In this document: in pieces, positions 5,270 through 63,400 of the stretch | How positions within the stretch are numbered: the stretch's first letter is position 1 | How the letters are laid out: each line of letters begins with the position of its first letter | Assembly: GCF_963921235.1 (NCBI RefSeq) | Contig: NC_086097.1 | Location: 115,756,001-115,820,000, forward strand | Direction: 5' to 3' | Source: Mobula hypostoma | Taxonomy: Eukaryota | DNA length: 64,000 nt | Position numbers and translations under genes: made by a program | The notes under the pieces: generated by a model | Database searches by the model: none | The model's input: only the letters and a program-made list of their open reading frames with translations | Told to the model about the DNA's origin: nothing

Positions 5270-6408
5270 TTTACGAAGATTTGGCAATACATCTAAAATG
5301 TTGAGGACCTTCTATAGGTGTGTGTTGGGGAGTATATTGACTGGTAGCATCACAGTCTGGTATGGAAATACCCAATTTACTTGAATGGAAATTGTACAAA
5401 AAGTAATGGATATGTCCCAGTCCATCATGGATAAAGCCTTTCCCATCGTTGAGCACATCTACATGGAGGATTGTTGCAGGAAAGCAGCATCCATCATCAG
5501 GAGCTCTCAACAGCCAGATCATGCTTTCCTCTTGCTGCTGCCATCAGGAAAAAAGTACAGAGGCCTCAGGATTCACACCACCAGGTTCAGGAACTATTAT
5601 TTCCCCACAACCATCAGGCTCCTGAAGCAGAGGGGATAATTTCACTCAATTTCACTTGCCCCATCACTGAACTGTTCCCACAACCTATGGGCTCACTTAT
5701 AATTACTCTTCATCTCATGTTTTCGATAATTATTGCTTATTTCAAAAACGAGAATGTCTGCAGATGCTGTAAATCCAAAGCAACACACACAGTATGCTGG
5801 AGAAACTCAGCTGGTCAGACATCATCTATGGAAGAGAGAAAATAGTTGATGTTGCAGGCCAAGACCCTTCTTCAGGACTGGAAAGAAAGGGGGAAGATGC
5901 TAGAATTAAAGTGGTAGGGGGAGAGGAAAGAGGCTAGCTGGAAGGTGACAGGTGAAGTTAAGTGGGAAGGAAAGGTCAAGGGTTGGAGAAGAAAGAATCT
6001 AATAGGAGAGATGAGTGGACCATAGGAGAAAGGGAAGGAGGAAGGGACCCAGAGGGTATTAATAGGTAGATGAGAAGAGGGAAAAGCCCAGAGTGGGGAA
6101 TACAAGAAGAGGGGAGGGGGAGGGAATATTTTTGAATCTGAAGGGGAAATCAATATTCATGCCGTCAGGATGGAGGCTATGCAGAACATTAAATATGATG
6201 ATTATTATATTTTTTTCTTTCCTTTTATATTTGCCAATTTAGTCATCTTTTGCACACCTGTTACCCGCCCTGTCAGTGCGGTCTCTCATTGATTCTATTA
6301 TGATTATTGGATTTATTGAGTATACCCACAAGAAATGAATCTCCAGGTTGCATATGGTGATATATATGTACGTCAGTCGTAAATTTTATTTGAACTTTGA
6401 ACTTTTGA
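5270..6408 (+). mobile_element. Rex1/Babar-like LINE 3' fragment with (TTTGAAC)n tail, split by a Penelope-like insert
   Basis: LLPSGKKYRGLRIHTTRFRNYYFPTTIRLL is homologous to the C-terminus at 55320-55410; tail tttgaactttgaac near 6390-6403. Confidence 0.75.
5743..6190 (-). mobile_element. Penelope-like terminal-repeat (pLTR) fragment with decayed hammerhead
   Basis: Homologous to 47036-47671 and 48618-49030; hammerhead-like motif at 5843-5880. Confidence 0.8.
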
Positions 6409-6522
6409 ATGGATATTTCCTTGGATTTCAGACTTCTATAAAAAAGAAGACATTCACTTATACCTTGGAGTATTTGCCAATTCCTTCTTATCATGCCCCT
6501 ACAGTTGTAAGAGTATTGCTTG

Positions 6523-7048: not shown

Positions 7049-7694
7049 TATTGGGATGTCTGCAGGATTGAACATTGCCTGCAAAGACCGTAGCCAAAAT
7101 ATCGCAATGTTGCTACCTGGAATACTGCAAGAAATATTGAATATGTTTTAAGAGCCCTGTGAGGAAAGGAAGGATCTGCCCCACCTCACCTGGACTTGCA
7201 AATCATCTGCTGGCTTGTATTCATCCCTTGCCCCCTTGCCCCCTTTCCCCTCCCCTCCTTCTAATTCATGGCTCCTTCTCAATTCCTTTCCCATTCTGAC
7301 GAACAGTCATATCCAGAAATGTCTTCTCTGAAGATGCCTGATGGTTGTAGAGTAATAGCGGTTCCTGAATCTGATGGGTGTGACTTAGGGCTTCTGTACC
7401 TCCTGCCTGGCGGTAGAAGTGAGAAGGGAGCATGGTCTGTGTGGCGGAGGCTCTTGATGATGGGTGCTACGTTCCTGTGGCAGTGTGGATGTGCTCAGTG
7501 GCAGGACTGGATGGACCCCGTAGGAAAGGAGGGGTCAGCAGCAGTATTTACAGGTTAAAGTGACTAAGGTGTGGCATACAGACACTCTATTAGTTTGGTG
7601 CTTTTTGTATTATGCCAACAGCAATTACATTTAACTTTGTATATGATATCACCCTTAGTGCTTATTTTCATGTTAATTTATTTGCGGTATTTGG

Positions 7695-7996
7695 ATGATA
7701 AAGATTAGCCTTATTTTCACATTTATGACAAAACATTGAACCATACCGTGAAGCGTGTCATATGTGTGCGATGTGCTGAGGGCAGTCCACAATTGTTACC
7801 ATGCGCCAACATAGCATTTCCACAATCCATGAACCCTAAACAAATGCTCTTGGGACGTGCGAGGAAAGTGGGGCACCCAGAGGAATCCCACACTGTCACG
7901 GGAAGAACACCTTACCGACAGCGAAGGAATTGAACCCCCAATCAGTGATTGCTGGCTCTGTAAAGTGATTGCGCTGACCCCTACACCTCCATGCCA
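7695..7996 (-). mobile_element. tRNA-derived SINE
   Basis: Minus-strand head with B-box-like GGTTCAATTCC (plus strand ggaattgaacc, 7926-7936); body shared with 8925-9185, 33250-33450 and 34530-34660. Confidence 0.7.
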
Positions 7997-8374
7997 TTTT
8001 AATAGACTTTTTAAATAGTTCTGATTGTGCTGTTCTGTAAGCCACATCTGATCCACCGCCCCCCCACCCTGGATCATATCCAATTAAAACAAAAATAGCT
8101 CCAGGACAATATACCTTCAGCGATCCATATCTCTGGTGATGTCAGTTTGTCCGTTCTCCCTACGATAGTGCAGGTTTTCCTGTGGATGCTCCTGTTTTCT
8201 ACCACTTCTGAAAGTTGTGCTGCTTGGTAGGTGAATTAACTATTGTAAGTTGCTATGAATTTGATGGAGTTTCAGAGAAAGGTAAAATAATTAGTGAATG
8301 GAATTGGTGGGATTGCTCTGTGGGTTGGCATAAACTCACTGGACAGAATAGCCCCCTTCTATGTTTGTGAATAT

Positions 8375-8752
8375 GTTAGTTTGTTTCCTCGTTATGTGGC
8401 ATGTCATATGACATGAGTGATGCTGGTCTTTGCATGATCATGGTTGTTTTGAGCAAAGTTTTCTACTGAAGTCATTAGCCATTGCCTTCTTCTGGACAGT
8501 GTTTTTACAAGGCAGATGACCCCAGCCATTATCAATACTCTTTGGAAATTGCCTACCTGGCATCAGCGGTCACATATCCTGTACACGTGATATGCACCAG
8601 GCGCTCATACAAACATCCACCACCTGCTCGAATGGCTTCACGTGACCCTAATCAGGGAGCTAAGCAGGTGCTACACTTTTCCCAAGGGTGACCTGCAGCC
8701 GAGCAGAGAGAAGGAGCACCTTACACCTCCTTTGATGGAGATGTATCTCCAC
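8375..8752 (-). mobile_element. RTE-related non-autonomous element
   Basis: Resembles RTE/BovB-type 3' ends (gccattgccttcttctgg..., catggttgttttgagcaaagttttctactgaag); recognised by pattern only. Confidence 0.5.
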
Positions 8753-8924
8753 GCTAAATATCTGAACATGAGCAATTGCAAACAATGTCTGCAAGCAAAT
8801 GAATCTCAGGGTGGAATATGGTGATGTATCAATACTTTGATAATAAATTTGCTTTGAAGTTTTGGACTTTTAATAATAGAAAACTTTAAAAATAGCTGCA
8901 GTTGTAGGAAGTTTTATTTTAATT

Positions 8925-9185
8925 TGATTTTATTTAGAGATGTAATGTGGAACAGGCCCTTCCAGGCCAACCAGCAGCACTGCCCAGCAACCCACCTAGT
9001 TAACCCAAGCCTAATCACAGGGTAATTTTCCTACTAACCAGTACATCTTGGGAATGTGGGAGGAAACCCACATGTTCATGGGGAGAACATACAAACTCCT
9101 TGCATTCTGCGTATTGTAATTGTGTTCCGAACTCCGACGCCCTGAGCTGCAATAACATCAGTGCTAAATGCTACTCTACCGTGGT
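8925..9185 (-). mobile_element. tRNA-derived SINE
   Basis: Shares 'gggaatgtgggaggaaacc...gggagaacatacaaactcctt' body and a decayed tRNA head with 7695-7996. Confidence 0.6.
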
Positions 9186-9845
9186 ATGATATGAAAACAG
9201 AAAATATTGGAAATACTCGACAGACTAGGCATCTCCTGTGGAGAGATGCATTTCCGGTTGATGAATGAGAATTTGGCAGTAGTAAGGACACTGTTTAGAA
9301 GGACAATGATATATCTTGTTTCTAACAGCAGATACTAATTCCGATCTGTGGGTATTCAGAGTATTAATAACTATCACAGTTGGTAGTGTTTGTAAAATCG
9401 GATGAGTAAACCAGAGCTTGATTAATCTACAAACAGATGTTCAAATTTGTAGGGTGAGAAAGTGAAAAAAGAGCATCTTCAGTTTTACCAACTGTTTTTC
9501 AGCACCTATGTGCTACTCATGATTTCAGTATTTATTGACCATCTGCCTTTTCAAGAAGGAAGTTGTGCACACATATGTTTCCAGTATGTAAACACTGGAA
9601 ATGCTTACATACATACAGGATTTTAAGCACTCCCTCAAATCATCCACCAAGCCAAAAATCTTGAATCCATGCAGATTGTAGTTTCTTAATGCGGAGCTCT
9701 TGTGAATCAATAAAACATGATATTATTTGAAAGTCCAGATGGAAATAATATCGTTATGCAATTTCCTATTAAGCTGTTGTATACTTATGTTTTTCAGCAA
9801 TCATTGAACAGTTCAATATATGGAGTAAAGTGTTGATTCGGAATT

Positions 9846-10859: not shown

Positions 10860-11900
10860 AGTCAGAATCAGATCAGGCATACGTCATGAAATTTATTGTC
10901 TTTGCGGCAGCAGTACAATGCAATACATAATAATAGGGAAAAATGTGAATTATAATAAATATATATATGAATATTAAATAGTTAAACTAAATAAGTAATG
11001 CAAACATCAAAAACAAATTTAAAAACAAACAAGAGAAAATCTGCAGATGCTGGAAATCCAAGCAATACACACAAAATGCTGGATGAACTCAGCAGGCCAG
11101 GCAGCATCTATGGAAAAGAGTACAGTTGACTTTTCAGACCGAGACCCTTTATCAGCACTGGAGAAGACGAGGAGTCAGATTTAGAAGGTTGGGAGAAGGG
11201 AGGAAGAAACACAAGGTGATAGGTGAAACTGGAAGGGGGGGCGCAGGAGAGGTGAAGTTATATGGTGGGAGGGGGCGAGGGAAAGATGTGATTTGTGGTA
11301 GATTCCCATTGGAGATGGCAGAAGTCACTGAGAATTATGTGCTGGATGCAGGGGCTGGTGGCGTGGTAGGTGAGGACAAGAGGAACTCTATCCCTGGTGG
11401 GGTGGCGGGAGGGTGGGGTGAGGGGTGAGGGCAGATGTGCATGAAATGGAAGAGTTATGGCTAATTTTTTTTTAAAAAGTAGTGAGGTGGTGTTCAGGGT
11501 TCAATGTTCATTCAGAAATCATATGGCAGAGGAGAAGAAGCTGTCCCTGAAACATTGAGCGTGTGCCTTCAGGATCCTGTTCGTTAGCAATGAGAGCAAG
11601 GCTGGTGGTGGTCCTTAATGGCGGGTGTTGCCCTCTTGAAGCATCACTCCTTGAAGGTGTCCTGGATGCTGCAGTTATAAGTCCCCATGATAGAGCTAAC
11701 TAAGTTTAAAACTCTGCAACACACATAAAAGTTGCTGGAGAATGCAGCAAGCCAGGCAGCATCTCTGCAGCTTATTTTGATACTGTACAGTAGCCCCCAC
11801 CCCACCCTAAATACTGGATGGTGACTCAGCCAGGTAGAAAGCTCTTCAGGGTACATCTGGAGAAATTTGCGAGTGTCTTTGGTGACATTCCAAATCTCCT
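10860..11900 (-). mobile_element. Rex1-like 3' fragment carrying two Penelope-like inserts (about 11025-11460 and 11719-11762)
   Basis: gaagaagctgtccctgaaac...tgtgccttcagg and gtctttggtgacattccaaatctcc match the other minus-strand Rex-like copies. Confidence 0.65.
11025..11460 (-). mobile_element. Internally deleted Penelope-like element with decayed hammerhead (11123-11160)
   Basis: Terminus homologous to 47036-47170; 11320-11455 homologous to PLE ORF region 49440-49580. Confidence 0.8.
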
Positions 11901-16735: not shown

Positions 16736-17780
16736 TAAGCCTAATCAAATACTCCTCCAGTGCACAAAACCAAGCAATTGTGTAAAAGTGTTAGAAGACC
16801 AATAAGACTTCAGCTGAATTATTTTTGACTATTTTCACATGGCGACAAGCTCAGTACTATATGAATACAGGCAATGAGAAAATCCTATTTTCAGATGAAA
16901 GCATTATCTGCAATTGAACTTATTTCTAACATCTTCCTGCGGCAGATGTAGCAATTTTGAACTATGGTTACTGGTCTGCATAACTAATATTGTGAATAAC
17001 TTTCTTCTGCATGTTTTGCCATTGGATCACCAATTTGATAATGTTACCTTTATTTCAGGTAGGAGGAGGGATTGAAATAATGTAGAAAAATTGATTCCAC
17101 ACGACTTTTATTAATGATAAACAAGATATATTCATAGGTAGACCTTAGGGTCAGCTCAAAATGGAAATGATAGCAGTTTACATGTAAAGTTACTGGAGGA
17201 AGAAGCTCTGGTTCATTAAACCAGGGTTTAAATGCAATGGAAATAAAAATCTATGATTGTTATATCTTTTGCTCTTATTAGCTTCAGAAGTATGCTCAGT
17301 AGTAGAGCATGCCCCATTATCAGTGACAGAACGTGGTTTACAGTAGATCTTACCTTTTTCTTGAGTATACCTTGTAGGTATCATCCGTGAAGCCTGATCA
17401 TTATTACGTTTATATCCAAACAATTTGGAAATGTATTTTTAAATATGAATAAAATATAAAGATGCAGGATAATGGATGCTATAAATGACTAAAGAACATT
17501 TATGATTGTTAACTTCTAACGACAGCTAAAGGGGAGATCATTCAAATTTGAATCAATCATTTGTTTCTTTGGAATAAGAAACAATTTAACATTAAGTTTG
17601 GCCCTGTCATGAAAACTGTTTCCTTTATTGGTGATGCAATAATTGTCTAAAATATTTCTGAGAGTATAGCACAAAATATAAGGATTAATGGGCTACTCAA
17701 CCTCTATTGCCTGCTCATCCATTCAATAAGATATTTCAGTTTAGCTTCACTTTTCTCTACTGGTATTATTTCTCTTATCT

Positions 17781-18550
17781 CATGCCCCATGCTGCACAAA
17801 ACATTGCATATCATTTGTGAAAGAAGGCTCCAAGTCAAGGGTGTACAGCATAGGCTCACGATCAAGCATACTTTCTTCAGCCAATGATTGGTGTGTCAAG
17901 GCTGACCTGGATGGGAAAGGCAGTTTCCCGGAGCAAATAGCTTTCACCACATTGCGTCCAGATATAATCGTATGGTCTGACACCAGTAGAGAAGCAGTTA
18001 TTGGTGAACTCACAGTCCCCTGGGAAGACAACATCGATGAAGCCCATGAGCGCAAGTTAACCAAGTATGCAGAGTTGAGATCAGAGTGCAGAGACAGAGG
18101 GTGGAAGGTCTCATGCTATCCATTCGAAGTAGGCTGCCATGGGTTTATTGCGTTCATTCTCCAGAAGTGGCTGCGTGACCTTGGCTTCACTAGAAGAGAG
18201 ATCAAGTCAACCAGCAGGGCTGCAGCTGAGGCAGCAGAGAAAGGATCATTATGGGTGTGGACCAAGTATGTCCAGAGGGGCAGATAGTCAGACAGTGTAT
18301 ACATATCTTGCAAACCCTTCAGTAGTTGCATAGACACCTGAAGAGTAGACTATCTGTTGGATGGAAGTAACCAACAACTCTGATAGAGGCAGATGCCAAG
18401 TTTTTAAGCTCACCAGTGGGAGATGGTGCTTTAGCACTGCTGGCCCACCACCTCAAAGGAGTCTTGATCATAAGCGGGCCGAAACTCCTGAAGACAGATG
18501 GCAGATCAACTGATGATCCCACTGGTGATAGCACAGGACAGTTAACATCT
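17781..18550 (+). mobile_element. 3' end of an RLE-type (R2 group, HERO-like) non-LTR retrotransposon
   Basis: Uninterrupted peptide LRPDIIVW...ELTVPWE...ERKLTKY...FEVG followed by about 260 bp of 3' UTR; lies inside an old minus-strand CR1. Confidence 0.85.
17817..18287 (+). CDS. Restriction-like endonuclease domain (PD..E..K..KY type) of a HERO/R2-like LINE, 5'-truncated
   Basis: 156-aa ORF with RPD, ELT-PW, K..KY and EVG motifs typical of RLE domains. Confidence 0.8.
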   Translation: MKEGSKSRVYSIGSRSSILSSANDWCVKADLDGKGSFPEQIAFTTLRPDIIVWSDTSREAVIGELTVPWEDNIDEAHERKLTKYAELRSECRDRGWKVSCYPFEVGCHGFIAFILQKWLRDLGFTRREIKSTSRAAAEAAEKGSLWVWTKYVQRGR

Positions 18551-33140: not shown

Positions 33141-34968
33141 AACTTATATGCTTCTAACACATAGAATTCATAGAGCTTCAATGATCAAGTGTAGGGTACC
33201 CAGAATCCATTACAGAGGGGCTCTCTCCAGCAGATAGTAAACATGATTAATTGAAGATTAGCTTTATTCATCATGTGTACATCAAAACATACAGTAAAGT
33301 GCATTGCTTGCTTCAAATCAATTCAGCAGAGATTGTGGCACACAGCCGGCAAGTATCATCACACTTCTGGCAACAATATAGCATGCTCACAACTCACTAG
33401 GCCTAATAGTACACATTAGGAATGTGGGATGCTGTCATGGGAAGAACAGGCAGCAGCAGGAACCTTATGTATCACATGACTACATCTATCTGGGTAAGTA
33501 GTTAGCAATTTCCTAACTTGACCTTTGGACGATTTTAGTCTTACAAGTGATGTAGATGAAATCAATGTAATTGAGGTAATGCAACTACGCAAAAACATGT
33601 GACATAATTAGGGAAGAATAGCAGTTTGCGGCATTATTTAATGAGCGCATTAAGCATTCACGAGGAATTGCAACTACAGAGTGATGCTAATAGAGAACTG
33701 CAGGCTGAACTGGATTGTTTAAAGTAGAGAACTCCAGGAAAAATTTGGTTGGAACACCACAAATCTAGCAGGTGGCGATAATGCACTGAAAACTGGTTGC
33801 CAACCGCCATAAAACAAAAAAGAAGAAGACCTTTGAGGATAACAAGGAGCTATAGCTATAAGCAGGTAAAGCAAGCAGGAGTAATTGCAGAAAATCTAAG
33901 GTAAGTTTAAAGAATGTAAAACAATTCATGAAATGTTCCAGCATAGATGAGGTCATTTGGTTAACTGTATCAACTCAGTGAAAGGGCCAACAATTGATCT
34001 CATCCCATAACCTTCATTATTTTTTCTTTATAATATAGACCTAGTTTCCTTGAAATTACTATTGAATCTGCTTTGCCCTTTATTTCAAGCAATCCATTCC
34101 AGGAAAGAAGAATTTAATATATAAAAGGTTTCTTCATTGTCATGACCTATAGGCCTCTGCAGCATGCAGTTAAGTGTTAAGCTGCTAGGTTTCTCGAGCA
34201 GCTGTATTTACTAATTGTTGTCTTAACTAGAGTTGTTAAGTCCTTGTGTTTTCTATTTAATCTTGTCAAGTTAATTGTGACTGACATGGGTTTTCCACAT
34301 CCTGTGATTATTTAATGGGGACCTGACTAACTCTTGTTATGGGGGTTCTTGTGTGGAAAATGATTTATCTTATGGTGTTGTTTGGTAGTGCTGTTGATGG
34401 TCTGTAGGAATTCCTCTGTATAACACGCTCTTTCCATCTCTACATGGGAGTCTGCTGGTCCTCCACAACTGAGTTCAGTCATTGCCAGCACTCACCATGA
34501 TATTCATCTTCCCTGTGCTTTTTGCAAAGCTAAAGATTAAAGATTAGCTTTATTTGTCACAAGAACATTGAAGCATTCAGTGAGGGAGTAAACTGGAGCA
34601 CCCAAAGGAAACTCATGTGGTCAGGGGAGAATATACAATCTACTTACTGACAGCAGCCATGCATTTGGCAGATTGGTATATTTGATGACCTCTCATCATC
34701 TCACTTCTTTTTCAGTGGAATGATCTTGTAAGTATTTGGAATTGATTGGGACATTTGATATCAACTCTTATAAAATGATAAAGAGATACAGGATTTCAGG
34801 ATGTATATTGTACATTTCTCTGACATTAAATGTACCAATTGATACAGCACAAAAATAGGTCCTTCAGCTCATCTAGTAGGCACTGAATATCAACCACCCA
34901 TTTTATCCTTGACTTACTGCCTGTTATGCCACTGGTGCTTAGGGCAGCAATGAAGGTCCTCCATTTCT

Positions 34969-36503
34969 GCCCAAGAAATAGTGGATGCATTAGTGATAAT
35001 TTTTCAAAACTCGTTAGATTCTGGACTAGTTCCTGAGGATTGGAGGGTGGCTAATGTAACCCCACTTTTTAAAAAAGGAGGGAGAGAGAAACCGGGGAAT
35101 TATAGGCCGGTTAGCCTAACGTCGGTGGTGGGGAAACTGCTGGAGTCAGTTATCAAGGATGTGATAACAGCACATTTGGAAAGCGGTGAAATGATCGGAC
35201 AAAGTCAGCATGGATTTGTGAAAGGAAAATCATGTCTGACGAATCTCATAGAATTTTTTGAGGATGTAACTAGTAGAGTGGATAGGGGAGAACCAGTGGA
35301 TGTGGTATATTTGGATTTTCAAAAGGCTTTTGACAAGGTCCCACACAGGAGATTAGTGTGCAAACTTAAAGCACACGGTATTGGGGGTAAGGTATTGGTG
35401 TGGGTGGAGAATTGGTTAGCAGACAGGAAGCAAAGAGTGGGAATAAACGGGACCTTTTCAGAATGGCAGGCGGTGACTAGTGGGGTACCGCAAGGCTCAG
35501 TGCTGGGACCCCAGTTGTTTACAATATATATTAATGACTTGGATGAGGGAATTAAATGCAGCATCTCCAAGTTTGCGGATGACACGAAGCTGGGTGGCAG
35601 TGTTAGCAGTGAGGAGGATGCTAAGAGGATGCAGGGTGACTTGGATAGGTTGGGTGAGTGGGCAAACTCATGGCAGATGCAATTTAATGTGGATAAATGT
35701 GAAGTTATCCACTTTGGTGGCAAAAATAGGAAAACAGATTATTATCTGAATGGTGGCCGATTAGGAAAAGGGGAGGTGCAACGAGACCTGGGTGTCATTA
35801 TACACCAGTCATTGAAAGTGGGCATGCAGGTACAGCAGGCGGTGAAAAAGGCGAACGGTATGCTGGCATTTATAGCGAGAGGATTCGAGTACAGGAGCAG
35901 GGAGGTACTACTGCAGTTGTACAAGGCCTTGGTGAGACCACACCTGGAGTATTGTGTGCAGTTTTGGTCCCCTAATCTGAGGAAAGACATCTTTGCCATA
36001 GAGGGAGTACAAAGAAGGTTCACCAGATTGATTCCTGGGATGGCAGGTCTTTCATATGAAGAAAGACTGGATGAACTGGGCTTGTACTCGTTGGAATTTA
36101 GAAGATTGAGGGGGGATCTGATTGAAACGTATAAGATCCTCAAGGGATTAGACAGGCTAGATGCGGGAAGATTGTTCCCGATGTTGGGGAGGTCTAGAAC
36201 GAGGGGTCACAGTTTGAGGATAGAGGGGAAGCCTTTTAGGACCGAGGTTAGGAAAAACTTCTTCACACAGAGAGTGGTGAATCTGTGGAATTCTCTGCCA
36301 CAGCAAACTGTTGAGGCCAGTTCATTAGCTATGTTTAAAAGGAAGTTAGATATGGCCCTTGTGGCTACAGGGGTCAGGGGGTATGGAGGGAAGGCTGGGT
36401 TCTGAGTTGGATGATCAGCCATGATCATAATAAATGGCGGTGCAGGCTCGAAGGGCCGAATGGCCTACTCCTGCACCTATTTTCTATGTTTCTATGTTTC
36501 TAT
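34969..36503 (+). mobile_element. Young 5'-truncated CR1 LINE with complete RT domain
   Basis: 474-codon open frame, 3' UTR, (TTTCTATG)3 tail. Confidence 0.96.
34981..36405 (+). CDS. CR1 ORF2 reverse transcriptase (RT core intact; endonuclease lost by 5' truncation)
   Basis: [38 protein letters not shown]; no stops or frameshifts. Confidence 0.88.
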   Translation: MDALVIIFQNSLDSGLVPEDWRVANVTPLFKKGGREKPGNYRPVSLTSVVGKLLESVIKDVITAHLESGEMIGQSQHGFVKGKSCLTNLIEFFEDVTSRVDRGEPVDVVYLDFQKAFDKVPHRRLVCKLKAHGIGGKVLVWVENWLADRKQRVGINGTFSEWQAVTSGVPQGSVLGPQLFTIYINDLDEGIKCSISKFADDTKLGGSVSSEEDAKRMQGDLDRLGEWANSWQMQFNVDKCEVIHFGGKNRKTDYYLNGGRLGKGEVQRDLGVIIHQSLKVGMQVQQAVKKANGMLAFIARGFEYRSREVLLQLYKALVRPHLEYCVQFWSPNLRKDIFAIEGVQRRFTRLIPGMAGLSYEERLDELGLYSLEFRRLRGDLIETYKILKGLDRLDAGRLFPMLGRSRTRGHSLRIEGKPFRTEVRKNFFTQRVVNLWNSLPQQTVEASSLAMFKRKLDMALVATGVRGYGGKAGF

Positions 36504-38760: not shown

Positions 38761-38872
38761 GGTGTGAGAATCCTGTAAATTCTGATGGACATCTACAGTA
38801 GCAAAGTGCAGTAGCATGGCAGTCTAATTATAAACAGTGGAGGTGATGCAGATGGTCCATATCCAAAACAAA

Positions 38873-38977
38873 ACACAAAATGCTGCAGGAATTCAGCAGG
38901 TAGCATTTATTATTTATTCTGTTGATCCCCCTCTATAGCTGCTGCCTGACCTGCTGAGTTCCACCAGCATTTTGTGT
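38873..38977. repeat. Inverted pair of Penelope-like termini (29-bp arms)
   Basis: 38873-38901 and 38949-38977 are reverse complements at 26/29 positions. Confidence 0.85.
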
Positions 38978-39779
38978 GTTGCTCCTGTGACAGCCTGTAC
39001 TGGTAAAAGGCAAACTTTTCCTCTATAGTTTTGCTCACTAAGGACTGATGACATTTATTGGTGCATGGAATTCTGGTCTTTTGGTGTGCTGTGTAAAGAA
39101 TCAAATTACTGCTCGGTACAATCCTGCTGGAATACCATTTTGTGTATCAAAGCATATCACAGAGATCCAAATCTGATTTCAAGTCAGGATAAGGATTGTT
39201 AGCAAACCTGAAGGAAGAGCACACTTAACACAAAACAAAATTAGAGGGCTCAGGCAGCTGTATTGTAGAAACAATTTTGTGGCCTTTACAGATAACAATT
39301 GAACAGGGTCAAAACCATCAGGACACAGTGGGACTTTGAGAATGAACTTTTAAAGCATGCTGTGTCTGTTTCCTTCTCTTAACTTGTATATACAGTAAGT
39401 CCACTCCGGAATTACCTGATATTTTCTTCCATTCATTCAATAAAAGCCCACTAAAAGCATGAAAGGATTGTTGAGTAGCATTTGACACCTTGGGAAAAGA
39501 GCAACTCTGAATTTTTTAATAGCTGGCCCATAACCAAAGCAATTGTCTATGTAAAGAAGGATTAATGTGCCCCATGAGTGTCAATAAACTTCTCAGATGC
39601 CTTTGTCTCATTAAAGCGACATGAAATCTCATAATCTTCACTGCTTTAAGAAGTACTGTTAAGGTTCTTTCTTCTCCATTGAAGCAACATTTGTTATTTT
39701 TTCACATAACATTTCAAAGTCAGATGCTGTATTATGAAAGTGCAATGAATACAAGCCATTTGCTTATATATATGCGCAG

Positions 39780-43571: not shown

Positions 43572-43932
43572 TAACACATGCAAAATGCGGAAGAAACTTA
43601 GCAGGTTAGGCAACATCTAGAGGGAGGAATAAAGAGATGAGATTTCAGGCTGAGGCCCTTCATCAAGGGTGGAAAGAAACCAGAATAAGAAGGTGGGGGG
43701 AGGGGAAGAAGTACAAGCGGAGGTGATATGATGGGGTAGGTGGGTGGAGCAAGGTTCAAAAGGCAAAGGACTGATGATAACAGAATCTGGTAAGAGAGGA
43801 GAGTGTTCCATGGGAGAAGAGGGTAGATGATGGCCACCAGAGCGAGGTGGTAGGCACAGCAGGAGAAGCAAAAGGGTAAGAGGAACACCGGAATGGGGAA
43901 TAACAAAATGAGAGAAGGGGGACAAAAATAAC
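43572..43932 (-). mobile_element. Penelope-like pLTR fragment
   Basis: Same terminus and purine-rich body as other copies; decayed hammerhead at 43635-43671. Confidence 0.75.
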
Positions 43933-44311: not shown

Positions 44312-44475
44312 GTAACACACATAATGTTCTGGAGGAACTTAGCAGGTGAGGCAGCATTTATGGAGAGGAATAAACAGTCAAACGTTCTGGGCCGAGGTCC
44401 TTCATCAGCACCGGAAAGGAAAGGGTGAGAAGCCAGAATGAGAAGGTGGATGAAGGGAAGGAGTACAAGCTGGCA
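44312..44475 (-). mobile_element. Short Penelope-like pLTR fragment
   Basis: Terminus plus decayed hammerhead at 44375-44413. Confidence 0.75.
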
Positions 44476-44744
44476 TCTCAAATTTCTTGTTGGAAGGGGT
44501 GCCTAAATTTCCTTCCAGCAATAGCTTCCATTAACACTGACAACGGAATGGGTATCCATGGATATTATTTTTTACTCCAGGCTTAACCAAGGTCAGTTTT
44601 TTCAACCATCCAATAGATATCTTGAATCCATGGGAAACAAATTTCCTTTGAACTATTAAGCTCAAGTCTTCCAACCAAAACTGAACAATAAACAGAGTTG
44701 CAGCACTGAGCTTGTATGACAACAAAAAAGAGAAGAGTGGGCAA

Positions 44745-44925: not shown

Positions 44926-45198
44926 GAAATTCGTTATATAATCCATGGTGAGCTGCTGTGAATAGCTTACAGCGAAAATTAGTTGGGATGGGAGGGCAAT
45001 GGGATGATCCAGAGCCTTGGTATAGAATGAACTCCTTCTATGAAACGATGACAGCATTGCTCCATTTTTTCCATGGATTCTCATTGCTGGCAGCTAACTC
45101 CTGCCAGGGTCTTCGCAGGTCTGCTCTGTCCTTGGTGTTTGTGCTTGTGTATGAGAAAGAGGGAGAGAGCATGAAGGAGTAGTGTTTAAATCTTCAGA

Positions 45199-45609
45199 CT
45201 TCTCTAACTTCCGCTAAGGCCCCACCTCCCTCTCGTACCCCATCTGTTACTCATTTTTATGCACACATTCTTTCTCTCACTCTCCTTTTTCTCCCTCTGT
45301 CCCTCTGAATATACCTCTTGCCCATCCTCTGGGTCACCCCCCCCCCTTGTCTTTCTTCCCCGACCTCCTGTCCCATAATCCTCTCGTATCCCCTTTTGCC
45401 TATCACCTGTCCAGCTCTCGGCTCTATCCCTCCCCCTCCTGTCTTCTCCTATCATTTTGCATCTCCCCCTCCCCCTCCAGCTTTCAAATCCCTTACTCAC
45501 TCTTTCTTCAGTTAGTCCTGACGAAGGGTCTCGGCCTGAATCGTCGACTGCACCTCTTCCTAGAGATGCTGCTTGGCCTGCTGCGTTCACCAGCAACTTT
45601 GATGTATGT
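45199..45609 (+). mobile_element. Young Penelope-like pLTR insertion with 16-bp TSD
   Basis: tgtttaaatcttcaga at 45183-45198 and 45610-45625; inverted homologue of 47075-47490. Confidence 0.9.
45513..45550 (+). ncRNA. Minimal type I hammerhead ribozyme motif (best-preserved copy; one core change GAAA>GAAT)
   Basis: tagtc-CTGACGA-agggtctcggcct-GAAT-cGTC-gactg: stem I, catalytic core, stem II, vestigial stem III, GUC cleavage triplet. Confidence 0.75.
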
Positions 45610-46410
45610 TGTTTAAATCTTCAGAGTTCACCTTCAATCTTGTGACTTCATGAACTTCTATGGAAATAGAAGTGATGCTCATTAAACCCATTTTATAGAA
45701 AGATTTCTCAATCAATGGCTTCCTATTAATAATCCTACCGAGTATAGTATCAACCCTATCAATACTGTAAAAGGAAACAATGGTGAACTGCAAGCAGCAG
45801 CGTTTGATCAATAACTGTAGTTGTGTGGAATGTCAACATTTACAATACGCAGTACTCAATGTAAAGTATTCAAGCGCGTTCCATGTATCCAAGCCTTGCT
45901 GGTTTGAGAAAGGGAAAGACTAATCCTCTCACGATCATCCAACATAAAAATATGGCTGAACTGTAAATGTTACCAAACGTTCAATTTCATTATTAGGGAT
46001 AAGCTAATTGTATTATTATTAAGTGCTATGCATGGTGACTGAAAGAAGACAATAACTGAGTTTAACAGTACATTCTGTAATAAGGCACCGACCAGCTTCA
46101 GGGCCTCTCCAAGTAGGATTAGTTTTAACAAAAAGCCTTTTGATAAACCACAGCAGTAATCCATTAATGTTCATGTAGAGATAAGAATGTGCGTGAGCTG
46201 GATTTAGTGTCCTTTCATGTTATGTTCCTGAACCAAAGAAAATAGAAGTTGGAATAGATTATTTCTCCACTCAAGCCTGCCTCATCAATCAACGTGATCA
46301 CTGCTAATGAGACTCAGTCCTCAACTTCTCTTCTAATCCAGTTGTCCATAACTCTCAAATCACTGAAAATATGTAACTATTTCCTCTTTCAATATGCACA
46401 ATGATCTAAC

Positions 46411-47035: not shown

Positions 47036-47671
47036 AAACACAAGGAAATCTGCAGATGCTGGAATTTCAAGCAACACACATAAAAGTTGCTGATGAATGC
47101 AGCGGGCCAGGTAGCATCTCTAGGAAGAGGTACAGTCGATGTTTTGGGCCGAGACGTTTCATCAGGACTAACTGAAAGGAGAGCTAGTAAGAGATTTGAA
47201 AGTGGGAGGGGGTGAGAGAGATCTGAAATGATAGGGGAAGACAGGAGGGGGAGGGATGGAGCCAAGAGCTGGACAGTTGATTGGCAAAAGGGATATGAGA
47301 GAATCATGGGACAGGAGGTCTGGGGAGAAAGAAAAGGGGGAGGGGGACCCAGAGGATGGGCAAGGGGTATAGTGAGAGGGACAGAGGGAGAGAAAGGAGA
47401 GAGAGAAAAAGAATGTGTGTATATAAATAAATAAATAATGGATGGGATACGAGGGGGAGGTGGGGCATTAGCGGAAGTTTGAGAAGTCAATGTTCATGCC
47501 ATCAGGTTGGAGGCTACCCAGACAGAATACAAGCTGTTGTTCCTCCAACCTGAGTGTAGCTTCATCTTTACAGTAGAGGAGGCCGTGGATAGACATATCA
47601 GAATGGGAATGGGACGTGGAGTTAAAATGTGTGGCCACTGGGAGATCTTGCTTCCTCTGGAGGACAGAGCG
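47036..47671 (-). mobile_element. Penelope-like element 3' end (GIY-YIG C-terminus + pLTR + hammerhead at 47133-47170)
   Basis: 47490-47670 homologous to 48995-49175; remainder homologous to 45199-45609. Confidence 0.88.
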
Positions 47672-48617
47672 ATATTCTGGCCATTAGTGAGACTTGGTTG
47701 CAGGAGGGCCAGGACTGCCAGCTCAGTATTCTGGGGTTTTGTTGTTTTAAACATGACAAAGCAGGATAGATTAAAGTGGGCAGGGTGGCATTAATAGTCA
47801 GGGAAAATTTCATGGCAGTGCTCAGTCAGGAAAGACTGGAGAACTCGATTAGTGAGGTGTTATGTGTAGAAATGAGGAATAAGAGAGGTATGACCATATT
47901 AATAGGGCTATATTATGAACTGCCCAACAGTCCATGGGATTTAAAGGATCAAATTTGTAGAGAGATTGCAAACTGTTGCAAGATTCATATTGTTGTTATA
48001 GTTTGTGATTTTAACTTTCCACATATTTACTGTAACTCCCTTACTGTAAAAGGGTTAGATAAGAAAGAGTCTGTCATATGTACTGAGGAAAGTTTCCTTA
48101 ATCAAGGAAGTTCCAATGAGAGAGCGTGCGATGCTTGATATCATATTAGAGAATGAGACAGAGAAGATGACAGAAATTTGTGTAGATGAACACTTTGCAT
48201 TCTGTGACTGCAATGCCACTAGTTTCCAAGTAAATATGCAAAAGGATATGCCTGGCCTGTGGATTGAGATTCAAAGTCGGAGAAAGGCCAATTTTGACGG
48301 TGCCAGAAGTGATCTGGCAAATGTTTTCTGGGACAACTTGTTTTCTAGAAAAGTTGTACCTGGTAAGCAGGAGATCTTCAAAAGAGAAATTCTGAGAGTA
48401 CAAAGCTTGTATATGCCTGTCAGAATAAAAGGTTTATAGAACCTTGGTTTTCATGAGATATTGAGGCTCTGGTTAAGAAAATAAAAGAGGTGCATTGCAG
48501 GTATAGGCAGGTAGGAGCAAATTAGGTATTTTTGGAGTGAAAGGACTACAGGAGAACACTTAAGAAAGAAATCAGGAGGGCAAAAAGAAGGAAAGAGGTT
48601 GGCCAGCAGACAAGATG

Positions 48618-51240
48618 ACACAAAATTCTGGAGGAACTCAGCAGGCCAGTCAGCATCTATGGAAAAGAGCAAACAATGGCCGAGACCCTTCATCAGGGCT
48701 GGAGAAAAGAGATTAGAAGTCAGAGTAAGAAGTTGGGGGGGGGCGCGGGGAGGGAGGAAGAAGCACAAGGTAGTCAGTGATAGGTGAAACCTGGAGAGGT
48801 GAAGCAAAGACTTGGGAAGTTGATTGGTGAAAGACATAAAGGGCTGAAAGAGTAGAAATCTGATTGGAGAGTACAGTAGGTCTTGAAGAAAGGGGAGGGG
48901 GAGAAGCATCAGAGGGAGGTGATGGGCAGGTAAGGAGATACGGTGAGAGAGGGAAATGGGAGTAGGGGGCATTACTGGAAGTTTGAAAAATTTAAGTTTA
49001 TGCCATCAGGTTGGAAGCTACCCAGACGGAATTCAAGGTTTTGCTCCTATATCCTGAGTTTGGCCACATTGTGACAGTAGAGGAGGCCATAGACTGATAT
49101 GTCAGAATGGGGAATGGGAAGTAGAATTGAAATGGGTGACCAATGGGAGATATGGATTTTTCTGTCAGATGGAGCGTAGGTGCTCAGTAAAGTGGTCTCC
49201 CAATCTATGCCTGGTCTCATTGATATACAGGAGGCCAGACCAGGAACACTGGGTACAGTAGATGACAGCAGCAGACTTACAGGTGAAGCGTCATTTCACC
49301 TGGAAGGACTGTTTTGGGCTCTGAATGGTGATGAGTGAGGGCATGTAACGGGAGGTGTGGCACTTTTCCATTTGCAAGGATAAGTGCCCAGAGGGAAATC
49401 AGTGGGAAGGGACGAATGGATAAGGGAGTTGCATAGGGAGAAGGAGATGGCGGAAGTTACAAAGAATGATGTGCTGGATGCAGAGCTTGATGGGGTGGTA
49501 GGTGAAGACAAGAAGAACCCTACCCCTGGTGGGATTGCGGGTAAATGGGGTGAGGGCAGAAATGTGTAAAATGGAAGAGATGCGTGTGAGGGCAGCATTG
49601 ATGGTGGAAGAAGGGAAGCGCCTTTCTTTGAAGGAGTGTATCTCATTAGTTCTGGAATGAAAAGCCTCATCCTGAGAGCAGATGTGATGGAGATGGAGGA
49701 ATTCAGAGTAGGGGATGGCATTTTTACTAGTGACAGGTTGGGAAGAGATATTGTCCAAGTAGCTGTGAGAATCAGTGGGTTATTAAAAGATACCAGTGGA
49801 TAAACTGTTTCCTGCGATAGAGACAGAGAGATTGAGAAAGGGGAGGGAGGTGTCAGAAATGGACCAGGTAAATTTGAGGGCAGGGTGGAAGTTGGAGGTA
49901 AAGTTGATGAAGCCAGGAAGCAGCACCAATGCAGTCATCAATGTAGCGTAAGTAAAGTTGGGGAGTGATACCTCTGTAAGATTATAACGTAGACTGTTCC
50001 ACGTGGCCGACAAAAAGGCAGGCATAGCTGGGAGCCATGCAAGTGCTTCTATACCTCTTGTTTGAAGGAAGTGGAAGGAGCCAAAGGAGAAACTATTGAG
50101 AGTGAGGACCTTGACAACAGTGGAGAGTGGTGATGGAGGGGAACTGGTTGGGTCTGGTGTCCAGAAAGAAGCAGAGAGCTTTGGGGCCTTCCTGATGGGG
50201 GATGGAGGTGTATAGGGACTGGATTTCCATAGGTGAAAATGTGATGATGAGGTCCGGGGAACTTGAAGTCATTGAAAAGATGAAGAGTGTGTGAAGCGTT
50301 ACAGATGTCAGTTGGAAGAGACTGAATCAGGGGGATAAAACAGCAGGGGGACAAAGGTGAGGCCCATGCTGAGGACAGAATGTTCTGCCTCAGAGAGAGG
50401 AAGGTCAGAGGGGATTGTGAAGACCTGGCACGGATGAGAGCATGGATCAGAGGAGGGAAGAGGGTTAGCAGTGTTTGAGGAGAGGAGGGAGTTGGATGGT
50501 CAGCTAAGATAGGGTGAGAGGAAGATGGGAGTCTTTGAGGACTCAAGAGCGGGCAATGAGACCTGAGAGATACGGGACTGCAGAGTGGTGGTAAGGGAAG
50601 GGAAGACTGGGGTTCCAATGGCAGCATGTGGAGTCCTGGCCTGGAGGTGCTGTCAGTCAAGGTCCAGCTTGGAGACGGGGTTGGAAGTTAAGCAATAGGC
50701 ACTTGGAACGTGTCCAATGTTGGTGCAACCCACATTGATGGCAGTGGAGTCCATGTTCTGAATCTGCTCGAGATCGTGAGAACCAATGAGGTCCACAGCA
50801 GAAATCATGATCTGGGGCTACTTATGCCTGCCTGTGATGAAGAAGGTAGGTTCTGCAGTCTGTAGATGGGTGATCTTCCACTCCTTGCTGGTTGTGAGAA
50901 ATGAGAAGAACAGGTGATTGAAAGTGTTGATCCAACAGAGGATAAAGTAGCATGCAGGTGGATTTCAGGTGGCGGAGAGAGAATCCCAGAGTTGTGGAAG
51001 TGATTGGGATAGGGTCCCCTGGCACCTCCTCATAGCGGAATGTCTAGAGCATATAATGCAGTAGGACAAGGAGTGGGAGAAGCAGTCGATTCAATGCGAG
51101 TACCTGGGGTCTTCAGACGGTCCAAATCGAGAAGCTTGGAAACTGATATGGAAGCCATGTGGCACAAGATGGCAGCGAAGACATTTTCCCAGGCAGGATA
51201 CAAGGCTGAAGTAGTAGGTCTTGCTGATTCTTTTATTTGA
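48618..51240 (-). mobile_element. Near full-length decayed Penelope-like retroelement (RT + GIY-YIG endonuclease + pLTR)
   Basis: Minus strand: PSYACLFVG near 50005-50035, LRYIDDCIGA at 49922-49951, Cys-rich linker GTYPCK, VIYC...LLYINETRHRLGDHFTEH at 49180-49267; pLTR 48618-48990. Confidence 0.9.
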
Positions 51241-54984: not shown

Positions 54985-56308
54985 TAATTGGACTTGGTCC
55001 AACCAAGCAGAGTCCACTGCCAAGAAGGCCCACCAGTGCCTTTACTTCCTGAGAAAATTAAAGAAATTTGGCCTGTCCCCTAAAACCCTCACTAATTTTT
55101 ATAGATGCACCGTAGAAAGCATTCTTCTAGGGTGCATCACAACTTGGTATGGAAGATGTCCTGTCCAAGACCGAAAGAAGCTGCAGAAGATTGTGAACAT
55201 GGCACAGCACATCACACAAACCAATCTCCCATCCTTGGACTCACTTTATACTGCACGCTGTCGGAGCAGTGCTGCAGGATAATCTAGGACACGACCCACC
55301 CAGCCAACACACTTTTCATCCCTCTTCCCTCCAGGAGAAGGCTCAGGAGCTTGAAGACTCATACGGCCAGATTTGGGAACAGCTTCTTTCCAACTGTGAT
55401 AAGACTGCTGAACGGATCCTGACCCAGATCTGGGCCGTACCCTCCAAATATCCGGACTTGCCTCTCAGTTTTTTTTGCACTACCTTACTTTCCATTTTTC
55501 TATTTTCTATTTATGATTTATAATTTAATTTTTTAATATTTACTATCAATTTGTAATCCAGGGAGTGGGAAGCGCAGAATCAAATATGGCTGTGATGATT
55601 GTATGTTCTAGTATCAATTGTTTGGTGACAGTAAAGTATAAAATATAAAATATAAAGTACAAGGATGGCAGAAGTCTGGAGCCTCAATGGTCCCGGTGTA
55701 CATCAATGGGACCTGGTAGCTTAAATGGTTTGGCATGGACTAGATCAACCAAGGGCTTGTTCCTTTGTTGTACTTTTCTATGACTCAATGACATGTCAAG
55801 GGTAAAATAGTGTTAAATGAAAATGCCATACTCAAGTTTTACAAAACCTGTCCGATTCTGTGTACCGTCTGTGATAAAGGAGCCAGTAAGCTAGATCGTA
55901 TGGAGATTGAAGGAATTCTCTCCAAGGTTGAGTTCAGCCCATGGGCAAAACCAGTGGTCCCATTTGCCGAGAAGCATGGTTCTGTCAAGATCTGTGATGA
56001 TGTTAAGGTCAACATCAAGCCGGTAATGAAAGTAGGTGAATACCCTCTGTCTAGGATAAAGGATATCTTTGCAATGCTTTCTGGCAGAAAATACTTCAGC
56101 AAAGTTGACATAGCTGAGGCCTACCTCCAGATGGAGATGGAAGAAGATTCCAGTGTGTTTCTCACCATAAGCACTCACAAAGGGGTTTATCGCTACAATA
56201 GATTTATTTTTTGGAGTAGCATCTGCAGTTGCGCTCGGCAGAAAGCTACGGACCAGGTCCTGCAAAGCTGTCCAGGCACTCCGTATTACCTGAATAACAT
56301 AATTGCTT

Positions 56309-56666
56309 CTTTTTTTTGGCATGTGCCTGCATGCGTGCGAGTCTGTGCGTGTGTGTCTGCGTGTGCATGTGTGCACGTCTGTGCAGTTGCGTCTGCGTGT
56401 CTGTGCGTGGCTCCATGCTTGCATCCGTGATGATGTCTTTTTCATGGCCTTTACAAGGCGCGGAGCAAGAGAGAGACTGAGTGACGTGCCATTCCTCACA
56501 CAGACATTTTGCAGTATTTTCCCTTAATCTTACCAGGTCGTCTTGCATTCTCGACATGCAAATTGGCACAGATGGAAAGTGTACTCGGAGGGGGACCCGA
56601 CTAGTTTCGAACCCAGGAACCTCTGCTCCCGGGTCCGGCGCAGATGTCATTGCACCACCAGCCGGT
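56309..56666 (-). mobile_element. tRNA-derived SINE with GCAC/GT-rich tail inserted at the Gypsy YxDD codons
   Basis: Minus-strand head ccggctggtggtgcaatg (A-box-like) and gggttcgaaac (B-box); short A tail; degenerate TSD aataacataattgct / aatatcatattttct. Confidence 0.8.
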
Positions 56667-58916: not shown

Positions 58917-59019
58917 CTAATCACTTTTGCCTTCTAGGGTATTGGATTCTAAAGATTCACCTTTGCACACCTGCAAAATCTTAAGTACTTCCCTTTAAGG
59001 AGCATAATGTGGGTCTCTC

Positions 59020-59282
59020 TGGACAGTTGCATCTCCATCCCCTTCTTTACTGCTTCCCCCTCCTGGTTTCACCTATCATCTGCTACCTTGTATTTATTTT
59101 TCGCTCCCCCCACTCCCACCTTTCTACTGTGTCTTCTCCTCTTTCTTTCTCCAGTATTAATGAAGGATTTTGGTCCAAAATTTTGACTGTTTACTCTTTT
59201 CCATAGATGCTGCTTGGTCTGCTGAGTTCCTCCTGCATTTTGTGCTTGTTGTTTGGGTTTTCTGCAGACTTTCTCTTGTTTA
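59020..59282 (+). mobile_element. Penelope-like pLTR fragment
   Basis: Terminus gatgctgcttggtctgctgagttcctcctgcattttgtg; decayed hammerhead at 59152-59189. Confidence 0.75.
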
Positions 59283-59284
59283 TA

Positions 59285-61255
59285 ATTTATGTGGAGCAGA
59301 ACTGTTTCAGGTCATCCAGGAGTGCTTCTTAAATCAACAAGAGTCCAACAAGAGGAGGGGCTGTACTGGACCTGACGTTGGTAATGAACCTGGCCAGCTG
59401 ACCGACCTTTCATTCGGTGAGCAGTTAGGGAACAGAGACCACAAGTCTTTAAGATAGCTATAGAAACGTACGGACCATGTGGGAGAATATTAAATTGGAG
59501 CAGGGCAAATAATAAGAGCACTAGGCAGGAAATAAGAGAAGTTATTTGGGAAACAGCTGTTTTTGGGCAAGTCCACATTTGACATGTGAAGAGCGTTTAA
59601 AGGCCAACTTGCATAGAGTCCAGGATAGGTATAGTTCTGTCAGAAGGAAAGAATAGCATGGCAAGGTAAGAGAGAGGTGAAGAATTTAGCCAAGAAATAC
59701 AAGGAAAGTTATGTAAGATTTAGGAAGCTAAACTCAAACAGAAGAAGTCAGAAAAGAACTCATGAAAACAATTAAAAAGGCCACACAGGGCATGAAAAGT
59801 CCTTGGCAAGTAGGATTAAAGAGAATCCTAAGACACTCTATAATATATCAACAGCAAGAGGATAACCAGGGAGAGGGTAAGACCACTCAAAGATAAAGGT
59901 GGAGAACATATTCAAGGACGTGAATGAGGTCCTTAATGAGTGCCTTACATTAGTATTTACCAAGAAGGAGGATGTGGAGGATAGGGAGATCAGTGCTGAG
60001 TGTACTAATATGCTGTGGCATTTCGAGGTTAAAGGAGGATGTAGTGTTGGGTCTCCTAAAGAGTATTAAGGTAGTTAAGTCTCCAGGGCTTGATATGATT
60101 TCCCCAAGTTATTGAGGAGGCAAGTGAAGTGATTGTAGAGGCCTTGACCAATTTCTTATGTCCTCTCTAGGCATAGGTGAAGTCTAAGATGACTGGCGAG
60201 TAACTAATTTTGTTCCGTTATTCAAGAAGGGAACCAGGAATAATCCTGGAAACTATAGACTGGTGAGTCTCAGGTCAGTGGTAGGGAAGTTACTGGAGAT
60301 AATTCTTAGGGAAAGGATATATGAGCATTTGGAAAGCCATACCTAATTAGAGACAGCCAACATGGTGTTGAGCAGAAGAAGTTGCGTCTTACTAACTTGA
60401 TTGAGTTTCTTGACGAAGTGATGAGAATGATTAATGAAGGTATAGCTATGGATGGTGTCTACTTGGATTTCAGTAAGGCATTTGAGAAGGTCCATCATGG
60501 AAGGCTCATCCAGAAGATTGAGATGCATGGGATCCATAGTGAACTGGCTTTTTGGATTCTGACTTGCCCACAGAAGACAGACGCTAGTGATTGAAGTGAC
60601 TTATTTGAGCTGGAGGTCTGTGATTAGTGGAGTTCCGAGGGATCTGTACTGAGAACTCTGCTGTTTGTGACATATGTAAATAACCTGGATGAAAATGCAG
60701 ATGGGTGGATTAGTACGCTTGTAAATGATACAAAGATTATTGGTGTTGTGGCAAAGAAAACAATGTGATATTAATAGTTTTCAGATGTGGGCAGAGAAAT
60801 GGAAGATGGAGTTTAACCCAACCAAATGTGAAGTGTTGCACCTTGGTAGGTCAAGTGTAATGGGACAGTACTGTTAAGAGCAAGACACTTACCAGTGTTG
60901 ATGAATAGGAGGGTCTAGGGGTCGAAGTTCATAGCTCCCTGAAAGTGACTGTACAGATTGATAGGGTAATTAAGAAGGCATACAATATGCTTGCCTTCAT
61001 TAGTCGAGGCATTGAGTTCAAAAGTCAGGTAGTTTTGTTGTAGCTTCATAAAACTCTAGTTAGGTTGCATCTGAAGTATTGCTAACAGTTCTGGTCACTC
61101 AATTATAAGAAGAACGTTGAGAGTTTACAGAAGGTAAGAAGAGATTTACCAGGATATGGTAGAGTAACAAACATTAGGGGCGTTTAAGAGACATTTAGTT
61201 AGCCATTTAATTGGTTCTGCATGACATTGTGGCCTGAAGGGGCTGTTCCAGTGTG
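59285..61255 (+). mobile_element. Degraded CR1 ORF2 (APE end to RT) with 3' deletion
   Basis: Homologous to the reverse complement of 40218-42904; YLDFSKAFEKV, KCEVLHLGR. Confidence 0.88.
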
Positions 61256-63260: not shown

Positions 63261-63400
63261 GAGTCCTGAAGAATAGTCTCAGCCCAAAGCATCAACTGTT
63301 TATTCATTTCCATAGATGTTGCCTGACCTGCTGAGTTCCTCCAGCATTTTGTGGGTGTTGCTTTGGGTTTCCAGCATCTGCAGACTTCCTTGTGTTTATG
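63261..63400 (+). mobile_element. Penelope-like terminus beginning at the hammerhead motif
   Basis: gagtcctgaagaa...caactg then gatgttgcctgacctgctgagttcctccagcattttgtg. Confidence 0.8.

Follow-up and report, generated by a model that had tools for sequence, protein, structure and literature searches.

We propose, with a probability of about 0.88, that the hammerhead motifs in a 64,000-nucleotide stretch of Mobula hypostoma DNA (the window, by which we mean the whole of this stretch) lie in the common 3' ends of a single Penelope-like element (PLE) family, likely of the Neptune type, whose copies were each likely inserted by the element's own reverse transcriptase (RT) and endonuclease, in a copying process that would usually stop early and leave the motif as a decaying passenger. 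The motif is of a kind already known (2014), and the ray family is a further member of it. The copies and pieces of the family, with positions counted from the first letter of the window, are the following.

45513..45550, plus strand: flagged motif; paired regions are stem I (45513-17/45546-50) and stem II (45526-37), with the core at 45518-24 and the extra A at 45525
45538-41, plus strand: GAAA box of the flagged motif, in which 45541 is U instead of A15.1; cleavage predicted to follow C45545
45197..45611, plus strand: flagged 5'-truncated PLE insertion; last codons and stop, ~295 nt of 3' UTR, motif, end of ~60 nt; no tail
45183..45198, plus strand: left target-site duplication, 16 bp; some of its edge bases are perhaps microhomology with the element
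45610..45625, plus strand: right target-site duplication, 16 bp
48615..51210, minus strand: nearly whole decayed PLE; broken ORF with RT (YIDD near 49930), thumb, Cys linker and GIY-YIG, stop near 48972; 270 nt from stop to motif, motif 48674-48701 with an 11-nt deletion from GAAA to the cut site; 5' limit approximate, protein-matched from 50230 downward only
47040..47671, minus strand: 5'-truncated copy of the flagged copy's subfamily; C-terminus of the endonuclease, 3' UTR and tail; motif 47133-47170 has G12>A and has lost half of stem II
11030..11454, minus strand: copy with a tail; motif 11123-11160 (G8>A) preceded by the thumb/linker coding piece 11261-11454 and the last 130 nt of UTR
5745..6185, minus strand: 5'-truncated copy with a tail; motif 5843-5880 (A13>C) preceded by ~305 nt of UTR
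43575..43930, minus strand: 5'-truncated copy without a tail; motif 43635-43671 (C3>U, stem I lost) preceded by ~250 nt of UTR
44315..44480, minus strand: short copy without a tail; motif 44375-44413 (G12>A, A13>G) preceded by 60-86 nt of UTR
59015..59285, plus strand: short copy with a tail; motif 59152-59189 (three core changes) preceded by 120-138 nt of UTR
63262..63395, plus strand: shortest motif-bearing copy; motif (G12>A, A15.1>G); tail
7175..7345, plus strand: tenth copy, badly decayed; motif at ~7291-7329, absent from the list of the earlier note
38846-38910, minus strand, and 38919-38984, plus strand: two motif-less end pieces, head to head
11716..11767, minus strand: motif-less end piece of the young subfamily

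The nine copies reported in the earlier note are real, each found at its position and on its strand, and they align over ~150 nt that include a common downstream sequence. A profile built from the nine added the tenth copy at ~7291-7329 (+) with an E-value of 0.0012 and the three motif-less end pieces with E-values of 5e-14 to 2e-7 in the 64-kb window; a further profile row at 9197-9246 (E 0.17) was left out of the counts, and the same profile search of the reversed window gave 0 matches. The density is therefore ~10 motif copies per 64 kb, and all PLE-end pieces together, with limits set by hand, occupy ~5.8 kb or 9% of the window. The bare core pattern is weakly above chance (38 matches vs 22.6 +/- 5.4). 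A structural descriptor applied to the window found 0 perfect motifs and one with a single mismatch, which is the flagged copy, and a one-mismatch match was also obtained in 3 of 12 resampled windows. As the descriptor match of the flagged copy alone is not beyond chance, the evidence lies in the repeat family and in no single copy, and the recovery of this family in the profile search rules out a chance motif as the explanation.

The identification of the motif as a minimal type I hammerhead, its stem III reduced to a vestigial palindrome and its place a Penelope-like terminal repeat, is supported by the family majority, the layout and the position. CUGANGA, GAAA and UH are present in this order in the family majority and in 0 of the 10 individual copies, and the palindromic helix III ACGU is likewise a property of the family majority, with CG at 15.2-16.2 kept in two of nine copies. 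The flagged copy pairs at 5/5 positions of stem I and 4/4 of stem II and carries an extra base after A9; in the reconstructed motif the pairs of both stems have probabilities of 0.9-1.0. Rfam hammerhead models (E up to 10) gave no match in the window, and they likewise missed an intact motif in a related PLE locus (L001, below), so these models are blind to the minimal form.

The consensus read by eye in the earlier note equals the column majority of the nine copies after one CpG is restored (4 copies have TG, 4 CA). While its letters hold for that majority, they do not describe the subfamily nearest the flagged copy, which has C at position 7 and a G10.1-U11.1 pair. We examined this subfamily in the contigs of four public runs (81,879, 73,860, 3,073 and 4,485 contigs) aligned to 45150-45700; an alignment to a single reference favours its own subfamily, and the figures are not a census of all copies. 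Position 45541 is A in 98-99% of the aligned depth in the four runs, restoring GAAA at the sole core defect of the flagged copy, and 45537 is C in 19-28%; within 45513-45550 only these two positions reach 15% other letters in any run. By these two readings, the subfamily closest to the flagged copy keeps a complete core, with C7 and a G-U pair closing stem II. The depth in run X1 is ~7 million over the motif vs ~11 on the flanks, which gives no copy number and signifies "very many" at most.

Within the window the motifs have decayed. The remark that no copy is perfect was correct, at least one core base being changed or deleted in 9/9 copies and the tenth being without stems, and so was the remark that many changes are CpG decay, with 26 of 66 CpG-position letters changed (23 of them C>T or G>A) vs 36 of 266 elsewhere. 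Among the nine copies 23 of 62 changes are of the CpG type, a slight overcount because the T at 45537 is characteristic of a subfamily. The core of the inserted copies shows no significant sparing (8/86 bases changed vs 60/396, P = 0.18), in a small test in which the core rate was the lower one. Covariation was not found among the window's own copies (344 of 500 shuffles scored as high), and none of the 9 sequences folds clearly better than its shuffles (best z -1.65, the value also obtained for the reconstructed motif). The lack of covariation and of significant core sparing is expected for dead insertions, and every copy in the window is likely a mutated, dead passenger.

The carrier of these motifs is best seen in the broken ORF that extends on the minus strand from ~51210 to 48972. 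Pfam gave no match on the window ORF pieces of this remnant. A 126-aa piece (49399-49779) matches 14 of 70 candidates, the best being from Mobula and Hypanus at 70-73% identity and a whale shark protein reaching 60%; six such homologues were scanned, and GIY-YIG was found in three and RVT_1 in two of them, weak by Pfam scores. By tblastn, ray and shark homologues cover 50230-48957 in order, across stops and frameshifts, from an RT with YIDD through the thumb and the Cys linker to GIY-YIG. The suggestion that a PLE RT/GIY-YIG enzyme had spread the copies is supported. A CX4CXXC linker is present in the homologues P0003, P0006 and P0011, and the window's own linker is decayed and frameshifted. 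A CX2-5CXXC linker is described for Neptune and Nematis, not for Penelope or Poseidon (Craig et al. 2021, PMC8557442). The family is likely Neptune-type, an assignment by sequence that depends on the decayed linker motif. It shares with Neptune a single ORF with the RT followed by a C-terminal GIY-YIG, an optional tail of 30-40 bp and inverted truncated partners, and its ray and shark homologues have the CX2-5CXXC linker as well as a Cys pair between the GIY and YIG boxes; in contrast, the ORF in the window is broken, its linker and Cys pair are partly decayed, and the linker also occurs in Nematis (PMC8557442). One further homologue, P0010 of Hypanus, is named "divergent protein kinase domain 1C isoform X2" and matches the PLE thumb at 62%, being either a gene model that absorbed an element or an exonised copy. 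That ray gene models absorb these elements is relevant for annotation.

The motif lies on the coding strand, 270, 295 and 297 nt past the ORF stop in the copies at 48674, 45513 and 47133, respectively, and PLE coding sequence is found upstream of it on the same strand in four of the nine listed copies. Upstream homology in the nine forms a ladder of ~0, 60-86, 120-138, 130, 250-260, 305, 316 and 500-540 nt and ~2.5 kb, and in the tenth copy it extends over ~115-120 nt. Downstream, the repeat family reaches ~60 or ~95 nt beyond the motif, depending on a ~35-nt tail that is present in 5/9 copies and missing from 4/9; both 3' ends, with and without the tail, also occur among the loose ends of the public contigs. 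The flagged insertion, 411 bp, is bounded by an exact 16-bp repeat, and it alone has a clear target duplication among the 10 copies searched. The empty site is seen in run X5, from a related organism, as a single contig whose depth equals that of the unique flanks; it connects 45184 with 45612, and 14 letters fit both sides. The flagged copy differs from the X1 majority at ~12 of 415 positions. It is a young, 5'-truncated, target-primed insertion into AT-rich DNA. A young and abundant family with an insertion absent in a close relative is useful material for studying the cutting of PLE hammerheads in vivo and their retention.

Some copies have features of their own. In 11030-11454 (-) the thumb/linker piece joins the last 130 nt of the UTR directly and the endonuclease is skipped, by internal deletion or template jump. 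In 63262-63395 (+) homology sets in at the outer boundary of stem I rather than at the cut site. The head-to-head pieces at 38846-38984 look like the inverted and truncated partner reported for PLE insertions. The copies at 45197-45617 (+) and 47066-47488 (-), both of the young subfamily, are 85% alike over 425 nt and face each other 1.5 kb apart; a read-through transcript of the two could form a long duplex.

We propose the following course of events for the family. A tandem source element, whose structure we assume, would be transcribed through its terminal repeat; the long PLE remnant has the downstream repeat only and no upstream repeat, and an intact pLTR-ORF-pLTR source is absent from the window. 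By analogy with the Anolis PLE, the protein would nick AT-rich DNA and prime reverse transcription downstream of the motif, where a choice between two priming sites would give rise to the optional tail. Copying would traverse the motif within the first 100-140 nt and would frequently halt soon after, and the density of motifs is explained by copying that passes the motif early and then stops. The ribozyme would be relevant only in transcripts of intact tandem sources, where two motifs may pair via the ACGU palindrome, or the element's protein may refold the RNA, for a low-rate cut after C17. The inserted copies then accumulate CpG and other changes, which in the window they do with no detectable sparing of the core.

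Related PLE loci from other sources have the motif in the corresponding position, with compensatory changes in the stems. A profile of nine ray and shark proteins was used to select the best 80 of 161 loci, on metagenome contigs. In these best 80 of 161 loci (301 kb) a strict descriptor has 11 matches, 10 of which belong to one motif family, compared to 0 in each of 20 resamples. Twenty-nine of the best 80 of 161 qualify, with the protein match near the ORF end and at least 400 nt beyond it, and in eight of these 29 a motif follows the protein match by 101-304 nt on the sense strand, compared to 0/29 on the antisense strand; the other 21/29 have no motif downstream. When the four best-kept of the nine window copies are compared with five of the loci, the core letters agree, two of three stem I pairs are changed in both partners and pairing is kept in 92% of cells; these compensatory stem changes rest on two groups, that is, on few independent events. 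Five loci have an intact inverted motif upstream of the ORF (L001 at 2289, L020 at 232, L033 at 116, L034 at 68 and L069 at 975, all on the minus strand), and L071 has at 3677 (-), away from its PLE match, another hammerhead-like match with a 4-nt palindrome and a 6-bp stem II. The exact degenerate motif pattern gave 0 matches in viral and metagenome contigs, and protein alignment in viral contigs gave 88 candidates, 0 of them confirmed.

In the energy model, which ignores tertiary contacts and magnesium, a rod in which the core pairs with the cut-site strand is favoured over the hammerhead fold by 4.0 kcal/mol for C7 and by 2.2 for U7, while for A7 the difference is 0; a double hammerhead is predicted at -11.5 kcal/mol vs -22.0 for two misfolded monomers. 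The ribozyme is thus predicted to be nearly silent as naked RNA. This fits the reports that monomers do not cleave and dimers cleave at a low rate (Cervera & De la Pena 2014, PMC4209133) and that the motif of PAc, the PLE of Anolis carolinensis, is cleaved only with protein (Frangieh et al. 2024, PMC11167929). It is possible, though on balance we consider it unlikely, that the hammerhead of the newest subfamily is locked off by design through the C7 that would pair the core with the cut-site strand. If so, the RNA would stay uncut until it is opened by a second motif or by the protein that the element encodes, cleavage would be timed to transposition, and rays, with very many copies and species-specific insertions, would be the best natural test of PLE ribozymes in vivo.

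The same predicted rod may also be read as a sign that the motif is a hammerhead by descent that no longer cuts and persists as a plain hairpin needed by the element's protein or for the start of transcription or translation. An ATG 15-18 nt past the motif in 9/9 copies would agree with this, as would the finding for the Anolis PLE that ribozyme mutants leave insertion in vitro unaffected and that no RNA ends fall at the cut site (PMC11167929). However, the family majority and a distant PLE group with different stems both retain every catalytic core base, and a plain hairpin would not need them. Among the motifs published in 2014 there are some with the letters CUGACGAA and CGUC too (PMC4209133), and the Anolis motif is cut after addition of protein (PMC11167929). 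We therefore regard a plain hairpin as improbable and favour the reading of the copies as PLE 3' ends with a passenger hammerhead.

A few further features surround this ATG. It is preceded by a pyrimidine tract and AG (the ATG is at 45566-45568, plus strand, in the flagged copy, and AG is present in 8/9 copies), and its frame is open through the tail in the copies at 11123 and 59152. The AG-ATG could be a splice acceptor or the ORF start of the next unit. A search with the 42-aa N-terminal piece of the remnant among full-length proteins, as a test of this ATG, gave no candidate, which is weak evidence.

The earlier note had further inferred mostly separate, non-coding modules that spread like a retrozyme, and this part is not supported in the window: the copies form a ladder of 5' lengths, four of nine continue into the ORF, loose ends reach the endonuclease gene and none are in tandem. 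Stated more precisely, a non-autonomous retrozyme- or SINE-like module of the PLE end would be amplified via self-cleaved RNA and borrow the PLE enzyme. Five of the nine copies are without coding sequence and the copy at 63262 begins at the edge of the motif, as such a module might. Similarly, the aligned depth over the motif and the next 55 nt is two to three times that of the upstream UTR, but this 3' excess is also expected from 5' truncation and pooled subfamilies. Moreover, the loose ends before 45197 run on into endonuclease codons in other contigs (runs X1 and X5), there is no fixed 5' end, and cleavage should release a unit that begins at the cut site and is without the 5' half of the motif, whereas 9/9 copies have that half. 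Tandem arrays of the unit (periods up to 500) were not found in the window, where the copies are spaced by 740 nt to 32 kb in mixed orientation; with no array and 0 intact motifs in the window, a tandem retrozyme was rejected. Work by Cervera and De la Pena from 2020 is said to deal with animal non-LTR retrozymes as well. A 2026 preprint derives tandem animal retrozymes from pLTRs and lists hammerhead retrozymes in the genome of one cartilaginous fish (bioRxiv 10.64898/2026.07.22.740005). These retrozymes resemble the window family in their type I hammerhead, their relation to PLEs and their spread by the PLE enzyme, yet they consist of ORF-less units in tandem that keep two or more intact motifs, unlike the window copies, which are single, varied in length, broken and continuous with an ORF (bioRxiv 10.64898/2026.07.22.740005). 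Taken with the ladder, these differences make a separate module very improbable, and we retain PLE ends shortened by early-stopping copying.

Domestication of some copies into regulatory ribozymes of the host, for which one might cite the very high density of copies (~10 per 64 kb) and the family sequence in contigs of runs X13 and X19 (whose RNA origin is guessed, so that they are evidence of neither transcription nor RNA ends), is hardly credible and was rejected, as 10/10 copies are broken, core bases are not spared and the flagged insertion is missing in one contig of a related organism.

The window family can be compared to the minimal hammerhead (min-HHR) defined by Cervera and De la Pena in 2014, who reported it in fish Xena, Poseidon and Neptune elements, its usual state being dispersed single motifs, probably on truncated elements (PMC4209133). 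In layout the window motif agrees with the 2014 consensus at every letter. Common to both are the type I layout, a stem I of 4-5 bp, an extra base between A9 and G10.1, a U-rich 5' flank, a helix III limited to the palindromic pair, the prevalence of single motifs on truncated elements and an abundance of thousands per genome. The G-U pair that closes stem II in the young subfamily is also found in some of the motifs listed there. In contrast, stem II has 4 bp in the window and 5-7 in most listed fish, and the density in the window looks higher than the 4,000-9,000 per genome of coelacanth and Xenopus, counts that include intact motifs only (PMC4209133). The host, moreover, is a ray, and no shark or ray is found among the supplement's chordate rows examined (PMC4209133). 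That the family may be uncharacterised in this lineage agrees with those rows; on the other hand, one cartilaginous fish appears in the 2026 preprint. Among the papers searched, none is dedicated to PLE hammerheads of sharks or rays. Our analysis extends the 2014 motif to a ray genome and offers a reason for its abundance, namely that the motifs lie near the end where copying starts.

PAc, a Poseidon element, is alike in having a hammerhead in the pLTR, two alternative 3' ends and an AT-rich target; the gap between its two start sites of reverse transcription corresponds to the optional tail (PMC11167929). It differs in that Poseidon is without the Cys linker and in that the PAc ORF begins inside stem II, whereas the candidate ATG in the window is 15-18 nt past the motif (PMC11167929).

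Other elements share the window with this family. Two nearly identical open frames of a LINE RT, 34954-36405 (+; 483 aa, RVT_1 E 4e-34) and 1098-2111 (-; 337 aa), belong to what we take to be a young family, likely of the CR1 type, and many older pieces are found elsewhere. An open frame of 180 aa at 17745-18287 (+) has no Pfam match and resembles the restriction-like endonuclease end of R2/R4-type LINEs. A decayed RT piece at 55792-56430 (+) matches RVT_1 weakly (E 0.006) and resembles an LTR retrotransposon.
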